DNA of 64,000 nt from Candidatus Micrarchaeia archaeon (lineage in GTDB: Archaea > Micrarchaeota > Micrarchaeia > Norongarragalinales > Norongarragalinaceae). Under the pieces are notes generated by a model, which saw only the letters and a list, made by a program, of their open reading frames with translations, ran no database searches and had not been told where the DNA came from. Below are positions 4,885 to 48,954 of this stretch, one piece after another (position 1 is the stretch's first letter; each line of letters starts with the position of its first letter). A program made the translations under genes and the position numbers. Location of the stretch: contig JBAZPG010000002.1 of assembly GCA_041648335.1 (NCBI GenBank), forward strand, positions 30,528 to 94,527, written 5' to 3'.

Positions 4885-6090
4885 TCAAAGCGCCTCCAAT
4901 GCCTTCGCCGCCTTTGCCGTAACACGCGCCTCGAAGTCAGTGCGCGTCTCCCCCTCGGGTTTCGCCTCTTTGAGCGCGTCAAGCAGGGGCAGGGCGGGTG
5001 CCGTGTTCCACTTCCCGCAAGAGAGTTCTTCGAACAGCTTCTCCTCGACTTCCCGCTTGTTCTCCCCTTCGACTTTGAACGCTGCTGATTCGGGCGACGA
5101 CAAGCCCGCGCGGTTCACTTTCACCGCCAGCGCACCAGTGAACGCCGCGGCAATTGAGTTGAACTCGATTTCCCCGGGATTCCCGGACGCGAGCGTCCCG
5201 TGCACCTTGAGCAGGACTATTTTGCCCGCGCACTTGCATGCACGCGCCTTTTCCAACAAGGCTTCGCGCACTTGCGCCGGACTCTTTTCGTTGGCGTCCG
5301 CCTCGACCGCAATTGCCTGCGCCGCGTTAACGGGTTTGAATTCAGTTGTTGTTTTTCCGTTGTTCACGCGCACCAGGTAGAACCCGTGCTCTTTTTTTGA
5401 GAGGTCCTCCAAGTCACGGTAATCCGCGGCGAACAACGGCCCCGGAAACACGATTTTTCCATAGTTTTTCTCGGTTGTTTCGATGCGTTCGTGCACGTGC
5501 CCGCCCGCGTAATAGTCGAAGCCCTTCGGGAACAGCGAGAGCGGCACGCCGTCCACTCCCTTCAGGAAGTCCGGCTTGTGTTCCTCTACCCCCGAGTGGA
5601 AAACGAATATCTTGTAACCAACACCCGCCTCGAGGGAAGCGCGGTCGAGCGCCTCGAAGTGCTCGCGTTCGATGCCGCGCTTTCGGGCATCCAAGCCCGT
5701 GAGGCGCGCCCCGGTTTCCTTGTCCTCGGCGAACGAGAGCTTCAAGCGTTCCCCCTCGTAATCTCCGAGGGACACCTTGGACAGGAGCCCCGCGCTCTCG
5801 AGCACGTCGATTAAGTTTTTCTCGGCGGGAGAATAGTCGTGCGAGCCGTACACCGCGTACACGCGCTTGCCTTGGTCGCGGAGGCGGCGGAGCGCGCGCA
5901 CCGCGCGGTTTGCCACCCCTAAGTCGGGTAACGGGGAGTCGAACAAGTCGCCCGCGATGATTACGAAGTCCGCTTCGCCGCACCCATCCAAGGCGAGCTC
6001 GAAGGCACGGCAGTTCAACTCGCGTAACTCGGGTTCCCGGAAAGCCCCGAGGTGGACGTCGCTGATGTGCGCGAAGCAGAAGTCCTTCAT
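4885..6090 (-). CDS. mre11: DNA double-strand break repair nuclease Mre11 (calcineurin-like phosphoesterase)
   Basis: N-terminal HISDVHLG and GDLFD phosphoesterase motifs; abuts rad50 (stop/start adjacent) in the canonical mre11-rad50 order. Confidence 0.9.
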   Translation of the reverse strand: MKDFCFAHISDVHLGAFREPELRELNCRAFELALDGCGEADFVIIAGDLFDSPLPDLGVANRAVRALRRLRDQGKRVYAVYGSHDYSPAEKNLIDVLESAGLLSKVSLGDYEGERLKLSFAEDKETGARLTGLDARKRGIEREHFEALDRASLEAGVGYKIFVFHSGVEEHKPDFLKGVDGVPLSLFPKGFDYYAGGHVHERIETTEKNYGKIVFPGPLFAADYRDLEDLSKKEHGFYLVRVNNGKTTTEFKPVNAAQAIAVEADANEKSPAQVREALLEKARACKCAGKIVLLKVHGTLASGNPGEIEFNSIAAAFTGALAVKVNRAGLSSPESAAFKVEGENKREVEEKLFEELSCGKWNTAPALPLLDALKEAKPEGETRTDFEARVTAKAAKALEAL

Positions 6091-6115
6091 AGCAGTTTTT
6101 TGGTCGCCAGCGAAT

Positions 6116-6412
6116 TTAAACGAAGCGAGGGGTGACTGCCGGTGTTAATTGCCCTTTATACCATCGCTCGTATTCCTTGTGGTTGCCCACGAAGACGACG
6201 CGCTTTTGTTTGAGGTCCGCACGCGTCTTGAACACGATTCTGTAACCGCCGACTTCCTCCACGAACACGGGCAAGCCGCGCCTCAAGTGCCTGGATTCGG
6301 CGTCCTCGCGCTCCAGCCACGCCAGCTTTTTGGCTATCTTGTCGCGCGCCGTCTTGTCCAACCGCGACAACTGCCTCGCGGCTTCCTCCTCGAGCGCTAC
6401 TTGAAACGCCAA
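6116..6412 (-). CDS. parE: Type II toxin, RelE/ParE family
   Basis: 98-aa protein with YRIVF...RVVFVGNHKEYERWYK C-terminal motif typical of RelE/ParE toxins; 4 nt downstream of an RHH antitoxin gene. Confidence 0.65.
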   Translation of the reverse strand: MAFQVALEEEAARQLSRLDKTARDKIAKKLAWLEREDAESRHLRRGLPVFVEEVGGYRIVFKTRADLKQKRVVFVGNHKEYERWYKGQLTPAVTPRFV

Positions 6413-6416
6413 TGAA

Positions 6417-6689
6417 TCACTTCCGCGCGTTCGCGCGCTTTACCGCCTCGCGCCAGGGCACGAGCTTGCGCTTGCCGGCGTCAATCTCGGCGTCAATCCG
6501 CTCGGTTTTGCGCGCCACGAGTTCAACCTCGATTTCCTTTGGGTCCATCAAGCAATACTCCCTGCCGAGTTCGAGCACGCCCGCGCGAATGGCTTCCGAA
6601 CGGGTTTGAAAATAACCCCGTTCAACGAGCTTATCCAGCACCACGGAAACCGCGCCCTCCAACCTAACCACTGCTTCCAAGCAAACCAC
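6417..6689 (-). CDS. parD: Type II antitoxin, ParD-like ribbon-helix-helix protein (GTG start)
   Basis: LDKLVERGYFQTRSEAIRAGVLEL matches the ParD/RHH consensus (sGrYasrSEvIRaaLR); operon partner of the ParE-like ORF. Confidence 0.65.
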   Translation of the reverse strand: MVCLEAVVRLEGAVSVVLDKLVERGYFQTRSEAIRAGVLELGREYCLMDPKEIEVELVARKTERIDAEIDAGKRKLVPWREAVKRANARK

Positions 6690-6790
6690 CTATAGAACAT
6701 ATACAAAACACCTATTATTATAGGTATTCTGTATTTTGCGGCGGGTTGCCCGGTAGCTGTTCCGCGGCCGGGTTAAAAAACGATTTCCAA
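6690..6790. promoter_or_regulatory. AT-rich divergent intergenic region with near-palindrome acctat-tatt-ataggt (6710-6725) and TATA-like tracts; candidate parDE promoter/operator
   Basis: Palindrome sits about 20-36 nt upstream of the parD start; GC drops sharply relative to flanks. Confidence 0.35.
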
Positions 6791-6887
6791 CCCGTGCCTG
6801 CCGGTGGAGATGCCTCGTTTTTGTTTCGAGTCCGCGCGTTTTGAGTGCCAGCCGAGGTTATAAGGCGGGCTTGCCAGTAATGTTTTT

Positions 6888-7556
6888 ATGCCTAGGCCTA
6901 TGCTTGAGAAGCCGGCGTTTAATCGTCGGGATTTGTCCCGGTTATCCGGAGAAGAGCGCAAAAACTATCTCGCTAACCTGCTTAGGTTGGTGCCAAGCCC
7001 GATCCATTCTAACACTAAACCCATAATCGCCGCGTTTATGAAAAATAGGTCACTTAATACTGCCGCGAAAGTGTTGAATGATACCGGCGTTGTTGTCAAC
7101 AAAATAGCACAAATATTTAGGGCGCACGGCGCTGATCACCGCGGAATTACTAATGGTTTGAATGCTGCGGGTTTTGGTAATGAGGATATTGCTCGTGGTT
7201 TGAAGTCTGCTGGTTTTGATTACGAGGATATTACTAGTGGTTTGAAGTCTGCTGGTTTTGGTCATGAGGATATTGCTCGTGGTTTGATTTCTGCGGGTTT
7301 TGGTGAGGATACTATTGCTAGTGGTTTGAAGTTTGCTGGTTTTGGTAATGAGGATATTGCGGTTGGTTTGTTTGCTGCTGGTTTTAGTCATGTGGGCGTT
7401 GCGAGTGGTTTGAAGGCTGTAGGGTATAATCATGTGGACGTTGCTCGCGGTTTGATTGCTGCTGGTTATGGTCCTAAGGATGTTGCCCGTGGTCTGATTG
7501 ATGCGGGGTTTAGTCCTGAGCGCGTTGTTCTTGGTTTGAAGTTTGCGGGGGTATAA
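6888..7556 (+). CDS. Tandem-repeat protein, N-terminal segment (18-residue GL(K/N)(S/A)AGF..EDIA repeats); terminated by a frameshift in a G5 run
   Basis: Non-repetitive N-terminal 75 aa, then 8 or more repeats of ..EDIARGLKSAGFGH..; stop created at the homopolymer gcggggg (7547-7551). Confidence 0.55.
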   Translation: MPRPMLEKPAFNRRDLSRLSGEERKNYLANLLRLVPSPIHSNTKPIIAAFMKNRSLNTAAKVLNDTGVVVNKIAQIFRAHGADHRGITNGLNAAGFGNEDIARGLKSAGFDYEDITSGLKSAGFGHEDIARGLISAGFGEDTIASGLKFAGFGNEDIAVGLFAAGFSHVGVASGLKAVGYNHVDVARGLIAAGYGPKDVARGLIDAGFSPERVVLGLKFAGV

Positions 7557-7870
7557 CCCTATGGCTGTTGCGATTGGTTTGAATGCTGCTGGTTTTAATC
7601 ATAAGGCTATTACCCGCGGTTTGAATGTTGCTGGTTTTGATCATAAGGCTATTGCCCGTGGTTTGAATGCTGCGGGTTTTGATTATGTGGATATTGTGGC
7701 TGGTTTGAAGTATGCGGGTTTTGGTCACGAGGATATTGCGGTTGGTTTGAAGTCTGCTGGGTATAGTCCGGCGGATGTTGCTCAGTGTTTGAAAGCGGTT
7801 GGTTCTAGGGATTACAACGAACTTGCTCGTGCTTTGAAAGCCGCTGGTTTTGATAACCTAGACATTGCCC
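7130..7870 (+). repeat. About 54-bp coding tandem repeats (ggtttgaa..gctggttttg..gaggatattgc..) underlying the repeat protein
   Basis: Direct repeats visible at nucleotide level; produce low-complexity shadow ORFs on the opposite strand. Confidence 0.6.
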
Positions 7871-7962
7871 GCTTTTTGAAGGCTTCCGGTTTGAGTACTG
7901 CCCGTTACCCCTATAATCCTGGACCTAGTCGGGCGGTTCTTAAAAAAGTTATAAAAAAATAG
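7543..7962 (+). CDS. Tandem-repeat protein, C-terminal segment (same repeat family, +1 frame relative to 6888-7556)
   Basis: Continues the identical repeat (GLNAAGFNHKAITRGLNVAGFDHKAIARGL...) and ends in a non-repetitive tail; removing one G at 7547-7551 fuses both ORFs into one ~357-aa protein. Confidence 0.55.
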   Translation: MRGYNPMAVAIGLNAAGFNHKAITRGLNVAGFDHKAIARGLNAAGFDYVDIVAGLKYAGFGHEDIAVGLKSAGYSPADVAQCLKAVGSRDYNELARALKAAGFDNLDIARFLKASGLSTARYPYNPGPSRAVLKKVIKK

Positions 7963-7980
7963 GTGCCGGCGGGTGTTGGT

Positions 7981-8397
7981 TCAGCGGAGTGATACGTGGT
8001 GGTGGCGGAAGCGCTGCCACACGCTCGGCTCCTTATTCGTGAGCGTCACCGTGCGGTCGTCGTGGATGCGCGCGTGCGCGTGCTTTGCGTGCAAGCCGTG
8101 TGCACGGAATGCCTCGCGCAAGGCGGCGCGTTCGCGTTCGACTATGCTGCGGCTGTAATACATTCCCGCGAGGATTACGAGCGCGAAGAACAGGGGCGCG
8201 TTCGACAGGACGAATTCCGTTAGCGGGTGGATTGCCGTGCGAAGTATTATGGGGTGTGCGGCGAGCGCGCTCAACGCCAGCGCGGTTAAGCCCAGGGCTT
8301 CGGCAGCGTAGTAACGCGCGCGTAACGCCACGAAGCGCGAGACGCGCGCGCGCAACGCCGCGGGTAACTCGGCGTGCGCGTAGTGCCGGTCCTTCAC
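7981..8397 (-). CDS. Hypothetical membrane protein, translationally coupled (ATGA overlap) to the herA stop
   Basis: 138-aa ORF with 2-3 hydrophobic helices; start overlaps herA stop by 4 nt. Confidence 0.45.
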
Positions 8398-9836
8398 GGG
8401 TAACTCCTCTTCGCCGCCTGGCTGGGGCGGATGTGTTCTTCGAACAACGGCACTGCCACGGGCAGGGCGAAGCGGGTGAAAACGCTCGTGACTATAGCCT
8501 CGCCCTTGTCGAGCGCGGCAATCGCCTTATCATCCGTGGACAAATCCTGGGAGGCGCTTGCTATGAGCGCGTCGCGCTCCTGTTTCATCTCGTTTCCGAG
8601 TATGATTTTCGTGTTCAGGTTCGCGAGCACCTCGCGGGGAATCAAGCTCGCGAGCTGGGTGACTGCTATCAAGCCGACGCCGAACTTGCGTCCCTCGCGC
8701 GCGATGCTCGAAAACACGTTCGCGCCCGCGGCTTCGCCGAGCACGCGGGGCGCCTCCTCGAGCACCACGCTAACTACGGGTTTGTTCTCTTGTGCTGCCT
8801 TGCGTTTGTTGAAGAGCGCGTTCGCGAAAACGCTCGCGACTAGGAGTTCGGCTTCGCTCGAGAGGCGCGAGGTATCCACGAGCACCTTGCGGGAGGCGAG
8901 CAGGTGGCTGGTGACATCGTCCACTATTGTCTTGCCGCCTTCCGCGGTGAAAACGCGTTCGTCGAGCACGATTCCGAGCTTGCGTTGGAGCACGTTGAGC
9001 GTAATGTCCTGGACTTTGTCGCCCAAGGTTTCGCCGGCGAGGAGTTTGGGCACCCACTCGTGGTCCCAGCTCTTGAACGCCAGGTGCATGGTTTGCTGTT
9101 GCGCTTCGGTGAACGGCATCACGCCGTTGAAGTGCCACGGCTTGAGCGACGCGTAGTTGATGCGGAGCGAGACCTGTCCGTTCTCGGGGTTCGGGGAATA
9201 CGATTTCAGCCACTCGCCCGCGTGCGGGTGGCTGCGTAGGGCGCGGTGGTACTCGTTGTGCGGGTCCATCACAAGACAGCCGCAGTAACCCTTGTCAAGC
9301 AAATCGTAGAGCATGACTTTCACGAGGTTGCTCTTGCCGCGTCCGGTGGTTGCGGGTATGAGGATGTGGTGGCTCAACACTTTCTCGCCGTCGAGCTCGA
9401 TGCGCTTGCCGGTTGTCTTGCTCCCGTTCCGTAAGTTACCAATGTACAACGGTTTCTCGGGTTTCTCGAGGAACGCCAAGTCCGAGTCGTTGATGCGTCG
9501 CAAACCCTTGAAGAAAGCGGGGAGGCGCTTCGTCGCGACTGCTTTCCCGTTCCGCAAGGTAACCAAGCCCTTGACCTTGGCTAGCACGTAGTTGCGTAAT
9601 TCTTCCTCGAAGAAAACCGATTTCTCCGCCTTGCCTTCGAGTTTGAGTCCGCTCATCAACTCGATTTGCTCGGGCGCGGTCTGGCTCCCGTACTCCAAAT
9701 CGTACACCTGGAGGAGCTGCGTGGAGTCGCCTTCCTCGCACGCGAGCAACTCGCCGATTTCGAGCGCTTCGCCGCTCTTCTGGCGCACGGCGATTTCCCC
9801 GAAAGCGCCCGAGACAATCTGGCTTACTATCTCCAT
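8394..9836 (-). CDS. herA: HerA-family DNA repair helicase (FtsK/HerA ATPase)
   Basis: Walker [17 protein letters not shown], FtsK-like ATPase core; preferred start is the internal ATG (MEIVSQ...) 10 nt after the nurA stop rather than the longer track ORF (to 9992). Confidence 0.8.
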
Positions 9837-9846
9837 TTGAAGCACC

Positions 9847-10833
9847 TCAAATCCTATCCAAGTAATCGTGAGCGTCCACGGTTGCGGAGTCGCGTTCGAT
9901 TTCCCGCCACGCTTCCACGCCGAGTTCCGCCGCGGCAACCGTGCGCAACTGCCTTGCCTCCTCGAAGGACACGCGGGCGCGCTTGTCTGCATCCACCAAG
10001 CCGTACGGGTAACCGAGGAACGCCAAGTCCGCGGACTGGAACGCGAGCGCAGGAAGAACGCTGAACGGGTCGCACCCGCGCTTGACTTCGAAGCGGAAGC
10101 AGTGCGTCGCGTTCTCGTGGAGTTTGGCGACGAACAAGTCCGCGTCGTGGTCGGGCTCCGCGTTCACGCAAAGCGGACCGTACACCCAGGGCGCCTTGCG
10201 GGCGCCGGCGAGGCGTGCGACCGCGGACACGAGCGGCAGTCCCGTTGTAGTGTAAAGCGAACTCGTCTTGGCGAGCGCCGAGAACACGCCTTTCGCTTGC
10301 GCGTACGCGCTTTTCGCGTAAGCCGCTTCGTTCGTCACGCTCGACTGGAGCGTGCCGTCCCGCACTGGGTTCTCGCACGCACCCGCCAGGATCCATTCGG
10401 CGTAACGCCGCGCAACGGCACCCAGGGCGCTCGGGGGTGCCTTGAACCCGCCTTGCGCGAGCGAAGGGTCAACCCAATCCAATGCAACGATGTCGTCGAG
10501 TAGCTTTTCGCCGCTCAACTGCAGCGTTTTTGCAGTCAAGAGCATCTTGCCGCCCGACGGTTCGACGCGCGTGATTACGAGGAACTCGGATTCGCGCGAG
10601 CCCGTGCGCGCGGCGCCGTCGAAAGTGTTCGCGTAAATGCGCACGAGCTGGATTGAGAGGTTCGGCGTGTTCACCACGCTCGCGTTGCCTCCGTCCACGC
10701 ACGACAGCAAGCCGGGTTCGGCGTCGAACGAGCGGAAGCGCGCCTCGTCGAACGCGAGCGAGCGGTAGCGCGGGTCCGTGAACAGCGGTTCGCCCAGCTC
10801 GGTTGCGTGCGGCTTCAAGTCAAGGGAGAACAT
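9847..10833 (-). CDS. nurA: NurA-family 5'-3' nuclease
   Basis: About 330 aa with N-terminal VDGGNASV (NurA D-G-S-type motif) directly upstream of herA, the canonical nurA-herA pairing. Confidence 0.65.
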
Positions 10834-48849: not shown

Positions 48850-48954
48850 CGCCGAGGACGAGATTCGAACTCGCACAGGTCAAAGACCCACCAGATTCCT
48901 CGCCCTTTCTCGGGGCTTCGAGTCTGGCGCGTTACCGGGTTCCGCCACCTCGGC
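48850..48954 (-). tRNA. tRNA-Ser (anticodon CGA) with long variable arm and a putative approx. 20-nt intron after position 37
   Basis: Reverse complement: acceptor GCCGAGG/CCTCGGC, discriminator G; anticodon stem CCAGA/TCTGG enclosing CTCGAA + intron (gccccgagaaagggcgagg; intron CGAG can pair with anticodon CTCG as in BHB motifs); variable arm GGGTC-TTT-GACC; T-arm GCGAG-TTCGAAT-CTCGT. Confidence 0.55.

Follow-up and report, generated by a model that had tools for sequence, protein, structure and literature searches.

Classical alpha-solenoid proteins (ARM, HEAT, PPR and the designed DHR proteins) stack tandem helical units into an elongated array, each unit having two to three helices and 30-42 residues. 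The protein considered here, encoded in a 64,000-nucleotide stretch of a Micrarchaeota genome (hereafter the window), would likewise be a stack of tandem helical units, but each unit would comprise 14 residues with a single helix. YadA-like heads also have a 14-residue period and a motif rich in Gly, Ala and Phe. These form a beta-roll in secreted, trimeric outer-membrane proteins of bacteria, whereas the repeat protein is predicted to be helical and carries no export or anchor signals. A motif in common was found in the LKxAGF/Y...IA arrays (P0002, P0010, P0041 and the Micrarchaeota protein P0006, MDP3741956.1; E 1e-25 to 1e-39), which are usually C-terminal appendages in bacterial and archaeal proteins of 600-2400 aa and are fused to lipase, SASA esterase, Ig-like/PKD, TrbI and C80 peptidase domains. 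At least one of these proteins (P0010) has a hydrophobic, signal-like N-terminus. The identity of the arrays to the repeat protein is 25-35%, and the likeness could partly be convergent.

In the homopolymer contingency loci of bacterial pathogens a G tract within the coding region sets the reading frame, as it does in the repeat gene. The known tracts of this kind (Neisseria, Haemophilus and Campylobacter loci) are usually about 7-8 nt or longer, whereas that of the repeat gene is 5 nt, and no length heterogeneity was seen in two assemblies. The literature gave nothing relevant on DUF7626, on 14-residue helical repeats or on repeat proteins of Micrarchaeota.

Organization of the Repeat Gene

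The first-pass annotation described a tandem repeat running across two consecutive plus-strand ORFs in different frames, and this arrangement was confirmed by TRF and by the ORF listing. The features of the gene are as follows.

6858-6863, plus strand: TTATAA, a possible archaeal TATA box recognized from the sequence only, about 25-30 nt upstream of ATG 6888
6888-7556, plus strand: ORF1, 222 aa (ORF listing)
7014-7154, plus strand: degenerate leading units, aa 43-89, seen as predicted 10-residue helices with 14-residue spacing
7050-7433, minus strand: antisense ORF, 127 aa, with ...TKTSRLQTTSNIL... repeats (ORF listing; called in both public assemblies)
7155-7911, plus strand: array of 14-residue (42-nt) units (TRF and protein-level alignment of the units)
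7540-7556, plus strand: sole possible frame-switch window, bounded by the last upstream frame +1 stop (7537-7539) and the frame 0 stop (7554-7556)
7547-7551, plus strand: G5 homopolymer, one G more than the in-frame G4, inside repeat unit 10 (GCG GGG [G] TAT)
7561-7962, plus strand: ORF2, in frame +1, with a basic C-terminal tail (...AVLKKVIKK) (ORF listing; mechanical start TTG 7543)

ORF1 consists of a basic N-terminal module (aa 1-42), three to four degenerate helix units (aa 43-89) and repeat units 1 to 9.5, and it ends in ...GLKFAGV and a stop immediately 3' of the G5 run; ORF2 contains units 10.5 to 18. The alternative start of ORF1 at ATG 6900 (M5) is a better fit to the beginning of the homologue P0130, described below. 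If the TTATAA at 6858-6863 acts as a promoter element, it would imply a leaderless or short-leader mRNA. The output of a scan for sigma-70 promoters and terminators carries no meaning in an archaeal host.

A 42-nt period was detected by TRF at 7154-7793 (15.2 copies, 73% matches, score 411). The unit had been given as 18 residues; the period is 14 residues, and the motif written out in the first-pass annotation itself has 14 positions. Counted from residue 90, 15 canonical units are followed by two to three degenerate ones at the end of the array, making about 17 clear units in all. Their consensus is G-L-K-(A/S)-A-G-F-(G/D/S/N)-x-x-D-(I/V)-A-x, in which G1, L2 and G6 are invariant, A5, F/Y7, I/V12 and A13 are almost invariant, and positions 3, 4, 8-10 and 14 are variable. 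At the DNA level units 1-15 are 52-90% identical to one another. The N-terminus had been regarded as basic and non-repetitive. It is indeed basic (pI 10.8 for residues 1-42), but non-repetitive sequence ends after about 42 residues, helices with 14-residue spacing being predicted from residue 43 onward. Basic character returns in the last 16 residues, after a repeat region that is close to neutral (pI 6.7). No hydrophobic signal or transmembrane segment was visible in the fused repeat protein.

The G Tract and the Change of Frame

Deletion of one G from the G5 tract at 7547-7551 fuses the two ORFs, as had been claimed, and yields a 357-aa ORF (...GLKFAGYNPMAVAIGLNAAGF...) in exact 14-residue register; across the repaired junction the product reads ...GLKFAGYNPMAVAI GLNAAGF.... 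The junction peptide FAGYNPMAVAIGLNAAGFNHK is obtainable only from G4 or by a +1 shift. Unit 9 has the in-frame form of the codons of unit 10 (GCG GGG TTT), and its G4 identifies the lesion in unit 10 as a 1-nt insertion (G4 to G5).

The distribution of stops supports the claim that one gene is split by a single extra G. Frame 0 is free of stops from 6888 to 7553 and has 13 stops thereafter, while frame +1 has 14 stops up to 7539 and none from there until 7960, so the switch of frame is confined to 7540-7556. Both halves are free of stops where the off-frames carry about one per repeat (42 nt), and the split-ORF pattern is more than chance.

The G5 sequence is identical in two public assemblies, ENA ERZ27249422 (contig k141_467856, 533 kb) and the Logan contig of SRR8449827. 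Over 13.7-16 kb both match the window at 100% identity, and they possibly derive from the same reads; the assemblers differ, the ENA contig being MEGAHIT-style. Both assemblies annotate the antisense 127-aa ORF and do not call the sense gene. Exact-sequence look-ups of the fused protein, ORF1, two versions of ORF2 and the antisense ORFs in the protein collection returned nothing; the sense products are missing because annotation chose the antisense strand. The DNA around the G tract had no match in viral contigs for either the G4 or the G5 allele, which makes that search non-discriminating.

Coding Strand

Since gene callers picked the antisense 127-aa ORF in both public contigs, the idea that it is the real gene was considered. 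It spans merely one third of the low-GC segment, and its frame is open merely through the periodicity of the sequence. The sense reading covers the entire compositionally distinct segment with one frame change, and its product has hundreds of relatives that depend on the order of the residues, an N-terminal module conserved in P0130 and a confidently predicted fold. On these grounds the sense strand is the coding strand, and a genuine antisense gene is hardly credible.

The Locus and Its Composition

The repeat gene lies on the strand opposite to, and between, Rad50-Mre11 and HerA-NurA. Mre11 of the window shares 72% identity with its counterpart in Candidatus Micrarchaeota archaeon CG_4_10_14_0_2_um_filter_60_11, and HerA and NurA are 81% and 75% identical, respectively (72-81% for the proteins overall). 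In that MAG (PFPF01000034) NurA-HerA-Mre11-Rad50 are contiguous, with a HerA-Mre11 spacer of 62 bp. The corresponding segment of the window is thus taken as an insertion, in agreement with the first-pass view that the gene interrupts a double-strand-break repair cluster from the opposite strand. It holds four elements, namely the repeat gene and the three ORFs given below.

6091-8393, no strand assigned: 2.3-kb segment between Mre11 and HerA, replaced by a 62-bp spacer in the one related MAG retrieved
6116-6412, minus strand: RelE-like toxin candidate, 98 aa (PHROG RelE-like, E 2.5e-6; Pfam HigB_toxin, E 0.048, below cutoff; GC3 0.76)
6417-6689, minus strand: antitoxin candidate, 90 aa, divergent from the repeat gene (weak ribbon-helix-helix match RHH_1, E 0.061, below cutoff)
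7981-8397, minus strand: ORF of 138 aa, its start overlapping the HerA stop, convergent with the repeat gene (GC3 0.81)

The sizes of the candidate toxin and antitoxin genes and the 4-nt gap between them fit a type II module (RelE/ParE with an RHH partner). The adjoining ParDE module of the first-pass annotation corresponds to this candidate pair of a RelE-like and a weakly RHH-like protein. Hydrophobic stretches were noticed by eye in the 138-aa ORF. A third assembly in the index has identical Mre11, HerA and NurA, but not the same calls inside the insertion.

The GC content of the repeat gene is about 45%, as against about 62% in the flanks, and its GC3 is 0.37 versus 0.77 for host genes. 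The toxin, antitoxin and 138-aa ORFs are host-like in this respect (GC3 0.71-0.81), and within 6091-8393 the foreign composition is limited to the repeat gene. Codon choice is a mirror image of that of the host: TTT makes up 100% of Phe codons (host 10%), GAT 90% of Asp codons (host 23%), and GGT stands at 78% against 14%. Together with the low GC content this points to a recent transfer of the repeat gene from a donor of lower GC; the genomes of the known relatives have 34-41% GC. Around the repeat gene no terminal repeats or target duplications turned up; the only pairs detected were short and probably due to chance.

Predicted Structure and Family Assignment

The fused 357-aa protein, for which the first-pass annotation had raised the idea of a solenoid, was modelled with AlphaFold2 from the single sequence, with no alignment. 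The model has a mean pLDDT of 83 and a pTM of 0.73, with pLDDT values of 92-98 in the repeat region, and the solenoid idea is borne out to the extent that periodic helices are predicted. Each unit is modelled as one 10-residue helix and a 4-residue turn, the helices recurring every 14 residues (H43-52, H56-65 ... H323-332), and I12, L2 and A5 are spaced (i, i+4, i+7) as the hydrophobic residues of an amphipathic helix would be. With 15-17 units of one predicted helix each, the protein would qualify as an alpha-helical tandem-repeat (solenoid) protein.

The 14-residue period could also be read as a YadA-type left-handed beta-roll, the fold of adhesin heads. Besides the common period, phmmer matched the heads of trimeric autotransporters (CbpF, E 5e-5; 9gh4), tblastn matched YadA-like genes on Burkholderia plasmids, and about 30 of the best 150 of the 388 database matches described below are SAAFG-type repeats. 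The predicted helices (pLDDT >90) and the amphipathic spacing of I12, L2 and A5 speak against such a roll, as do the lack of a signal peptide and C-terminal anchor, the lack of any Pfam match to YadA head, stalk or anchor even at E<=10, and an archaeal host without an outer membrane. Based on the helical prediction, the missing export and anchor features and the nature of the host, the beta-roll was rejected as very improbable.

Profile searches of Pfam and NCBIfam revealed no dedicated family for the repeat. They gave partial, summed matches to short helical motifs, among them RepB_primase_C, DUF7626, DUF494, UBA and RecX. The match to RepB_primase_C (PF22448) reached 34.6 bits against a cutoff of 26.1, but this total sums partial matches; its best stretch covers model positions 9-29 (21 of 54), and the primase domain is absent. 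Members of RecX score above the equivalog cutoff and are built of three three-helix repeats, about 50 aa each; the repeat protein has no such repeats and scored 25 bits against the NCBIfam equivalog cutoff of 189. RecX and the RepB' primase helix bundle (together PDB 3c1d and 3h20), as well as Ltp of phage TP-J34 (4eqq), align over 57-72 residues only and do not have the 14-residue periodicity of the repeat protein. This weak likeness is compatible with helical modules that bind DNA or protein and proves nothing. L..AGF...DIA, which we take to resemble half of a (HhH)2 motif, was also considered as a helix-hairpin-helix element, and no HhH family was matched even at E<=10. A Foldseek search of the PDB returned significant matches solely to designed helical repeat proteins, with TM-scores <=0.3, and no good match to the repeat protein was found among solved structures.

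Relatives of the Repeat Protein

Among 1.84 billion cluster representatives searched exhaustively with phmmer, 388 matched at E<=1e-3, five of them at E<=1e-30. The repeat had been described as one with no obvious assignment; this applies to curated families, but not to relatives. The best 150 of the 388 are mostly long bacterial proteins (median 915 aa) with C-terminal LKxAGF/Y...IA arrays, and in the relatives the array has a period of 14 residues or a 29-residue double unit. About one fifth of these best 150 are unrelated YadA-type SAAFG repeats, whose common features are only the 14-residue period and the content of Gly, Ala and Phe. The matches depend on the order of the residues, since reversed or unit-permuted queries lost 142-150 of the 150 (0-8 survived).

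The archaeal relative P0006 is from another Micrarchaeota MAG and is 26% identical to the repeat protein. It was considered as a link to DNA repair, its gene being 1 kb from a Mre11-like gene; gene order and orientation differ, and with the identity at 26% this proximity is regarded as a coincidence.

P0130, a metagenomic protein of 211 aa, is the sole protein with a common N-terminal module (KPxFxxRDLSxLSxEERxxYLA). Residues 8-50 of the query, KPAFNRRDLSRLSGEERKNYLA...NTKPIIAAF, align to KPSFENRDLSGLSKEERVAYLA...NTQPILKAF of P0130. Its head is followed by irregular and fewer units of the same kind of helix and then by a basic C-terminal tail. P0130 is predicted to be all-alpha (pLDDT 85) and is encoded by one ORF that is not split. 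It was located on four contigs (L007-L010) of about 34% GC, whose host lineage differs from the Micrarchaeota host. On two of them (L008, L010) the gene is divergent from a PemK-type toxin-antitoxin pair within an AbiEii/PIN/Fic island, and on L007 an IS transposase and a methyltransferase are encoded nearby. Sequence common to the contigs starts about 145 bp upstream of the P0130 gene.

A scan for orthologues in the GTDB species set and the JGI metagenome contigs gave none closer than P0130. The two metagenome matches (L004, L005) proved to be BlaR1-like membrane proteins with a different 29-residue repeat, having only MKAAGF-DNLDIA in common with the query. Word-indexed protein searches gave 0 matches for the fused protein and for the N-terminal alignment, and P0130 retrieved only itself; repetitive words probably swamp the candidates.

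A phage or viral origin was also considered and is without support: there was no tblastn match to the repeat protein in phage genomes and no significant fold match in BFVD, and neither the N-terminal motif nor P0130 was found in viral contigs. The PHROG matches to the repeat protein were short and weak, and PADLOC gave no match for it.

Cause of the Split

The reading favoured here, at slightly better than an even chance, is that a foreign gene for an alpha-solenoid binding scaffold has acquired a genuine recent 1-nt insertion, which leaves a pseudogene or a truncated 222-aa product. The insertion would be recent because the downstream frame does not contain a single stop, and ill-adapted foreign genes are typically prone to decay. 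The same features can be explained by a sequencing or assembly error, the real gene then having G4 and an intact 357-aa ORF: perfect register is regained by one base in a homopolymer, 139 downstream codons are free of stops where off-frames have about one per 42 nt, and the two assemblies, 100% identical over 13.7 kb, may share reads. Indels in 5-nt homopolymers are rare in consensus built from short-read data, and the k141_ name of the ENA contig suggests a short-read MEGAHIT assembly. The error that the first-pass annotation had allowed for is doubtful, since two different assemblers produced the same G5, though possibly from the same reads, and we consider it unlikely. That annotation had also called the tract a classic site of slipped-strand phase variation, by which a population would toggle between G4 (on) and G5 (off). 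A homopolymer within a coding repeat would indeed toggle the frame, and an intact downstream frame is compatible with reversible switching, but a tract of just 4-5 G is too short for this, and a G4 variant was absent from the protein collection and from both assemblies; phase variation at this site is accordingly very doubtful.

It is also rather improbable that the split gene is still expressed, either through reinitiation or coupling at ATG 7561, giving two shorter solenoids, or through a +1 slip on GGG-G, giving the full-length protein. For reinitiation, the ORF1 stop (7554-7556) is placed 4 nt before ATG 7561, and the GGGGGT 9 nt upstream of this ATG resembles the GGAGG-type motifs 5' of internal host genes. 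For a slip, a tRNA-Gly paired with GGG would find a perfect GGG again on moving into the +1 frame, and frame 0 continues with GUA, a codon little used by the host (7% of Val, 5.4 per 1000). Either route agrees with the intact downstream frame, and with arrays of such modular build the halves could fold independently. When compared with prfB and antizyme, the site has no stop codon in the A site, unlike classical +1 sites, the stop coming one codon after GUA; a stimulator was not identified, and conservation of the shift site was not found, there being no orthologue in genome or metagenome contigs. P0130, the sole homologue with the same N-terminal module, is unsplit. This speaks against expression of a split gene and argues against a conserved two-gene arrangement, for which the first-pass annotation had looked to homologues that are also split.

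Proposed Protein and Its Role

On the favoured reading of a decaying foreign gene, one gene, acquired horizontally by a Micrarchaeota (DPANN) genome, would have specified, when intact, a 357-aa alpha-solenoid, presumably cytoplasmic, with a short basic N-terminal module, about 20-21 consecutive short helices and a basic C-terminal tail. The predicted protein would be a soluble, elongated stack of helices, its core and turns being built by L2, A5, F/Y7, I/V12, A13 and the two glycines, while the variable positions 3, 4, 8-10 and 14 would line a long exposed surface. Given that surface, the most likely role is that of a scaffold binding a macromolecule, protein or nucleic acid, along its length, and its basic ends might strengthen binding to nucleic acid or to an acidic protein. 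The G4-to-G5 insertion in unit 10 splits the gene; if the extra G is present in the cells, function has probably been lost, and what remains would be a truncated 222-aa product and a 3' half that is untranslated or separately reinitiated.

The siting in two unrelated hosts beside toxin-antitoxin genes, here a candidate pair, fits cargo of variable, mobile islands and not a role in double-strand-break repair. A much more speculative proposal, to which we give little credence, is that the single-helix unit of 14 residues marks a family of alpha-solenoids not described before, whose members with the KPxFxxRDLSxLSxEERxxYLA module are mobile cargo beside toxin-antitoxin modules in DPANN and other uncultured archaea and have as their target either nucleic acid or a protein of the host or of a virus, the full-length form here being gated by G4/G5 slippage or a +1 ribosomal shift.

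The frameshift itself may simply mark a dying gene, and nothing at this locus addresses a long-standing open question. The locus does illustrate that gene callers can miss genes that are periodic and compositionally foreign, for both public assemblies annotate the antisense strand, and the repeat protein is absent from protein databases as a result. For DPANN archaea it adds an example of foreign cargo beside a candidate toxin-antitoxin pair, this time within a DNA-repair operon that is otherwise conserved. Should the prediction hold, the 14-residue unit with its one helix is exceptionally small for a helical repeat. No curated model describes it, although 388 database clusters match it at E<=1e-3, those of the helical type being fused to very different enzymes, and a Pfam-style family together with one solved structure would annotate all these clusters.

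Annotation and composition of the repeat gene

The extreme strand asymmetry of the repeat-gene coding strand at window 7150-7900 (GC skew reaching +0.53 and AT skew falling to -0.46) results from the near-exclusive use of the codons GGT, TTG, GCT, TTT and GTT. Across the repeat, the gene calls of both public assemblies (ENA and Logan) hold a single antisense ORF and no sense gene, which is why the real product is missing from protein collections.

7050-7433 (8658-9041 of public contig L001), minus strand in the window: antisense ORF, 127 aa

Edges of the insertion and neighboring genes

The 5' ends of Mre11 (6067-6089) and of the 138-aa ORF (8374-8396) have 17 of 23 nucleotides in common, the N-termini being MKDFCFAH and MKDRHYAH, respectively. 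This match may be a duplication left by insertion of the 2.3-kb segment, or may be due to chance. Within the segment, a long AT-rich palindrome lies between divergent genes, immediately upstream of the antitoxin-like gene, and could be an operator.

6701-6734: palindrome ATACAGAATACCTATAATAATAGGTGTTTTGTAT (minus-strand sequence), 15 pairs when G-T pairing is counted

The mechanically called HerA ORF (8394-9992, minus strand) encodes 532 aa; the public gene calls and alignment to the related MAG support a 480-aa form starting with MEIVSQ at 9836. Three genes are identical in a third assembly in the contig index (contig of 50-200 kb), which the index does not list for the window's ORF calls inside the insertion.

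4885-6090: Mre11
8394-9836: HerA
9847-10833: NurA

Elsewhere in the window, a tRNA matched by Rfam but absent from the ARAGORN output is probably an intron-containing archaeal tRNA.

48850-48954, minus strand: tRNA, 105 nt

Similar repeats and the P0130 loci

The motif of the window protein recurs in a 621-aa (partial) repeat protein of Micrarchaeota MAG GCA_030697615.1 (contig L006), 1 kb from an Mre11-like phosphoesterase which is 26% identical to the Mre11 of the window. This proximity is probably coincidental, since gene order and orientation differ from those of the window. Two metagenome contigs encode what appear, judged by eye from the translations, to be BlaR1/M56-like membrane proteins. 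These carry at their C-terminal end a 29-residue repeat, MKAAGYxDLSIDQLLQxRIxGVDAxYAKE, which shares the half-motif MKAAGF-DNLDIA with the window protein.

L006 1-1866 and 2831-4033: repeat protein and Mre11-like phosphoesterase
L004 1228-3498 and L005 818-3526: repeat proteins, apparently BlaR1/M56-like

The gene for P0130, the 211-aa metagenomic protein sharing the N-terminal module, is 99.5% identical, together with some 145 bp of upstream and no less than 780 bp of downstream sequence, across two distinct left-hand contexts: a toxin-antitoxin/Abi/Fic island in contigs L008 and L010, and an IS and methylase region in L007 (compared at L007 4444 versus L008 5916). This switch of context points to either a recombination breakpoint or a mobile cassette of small size.
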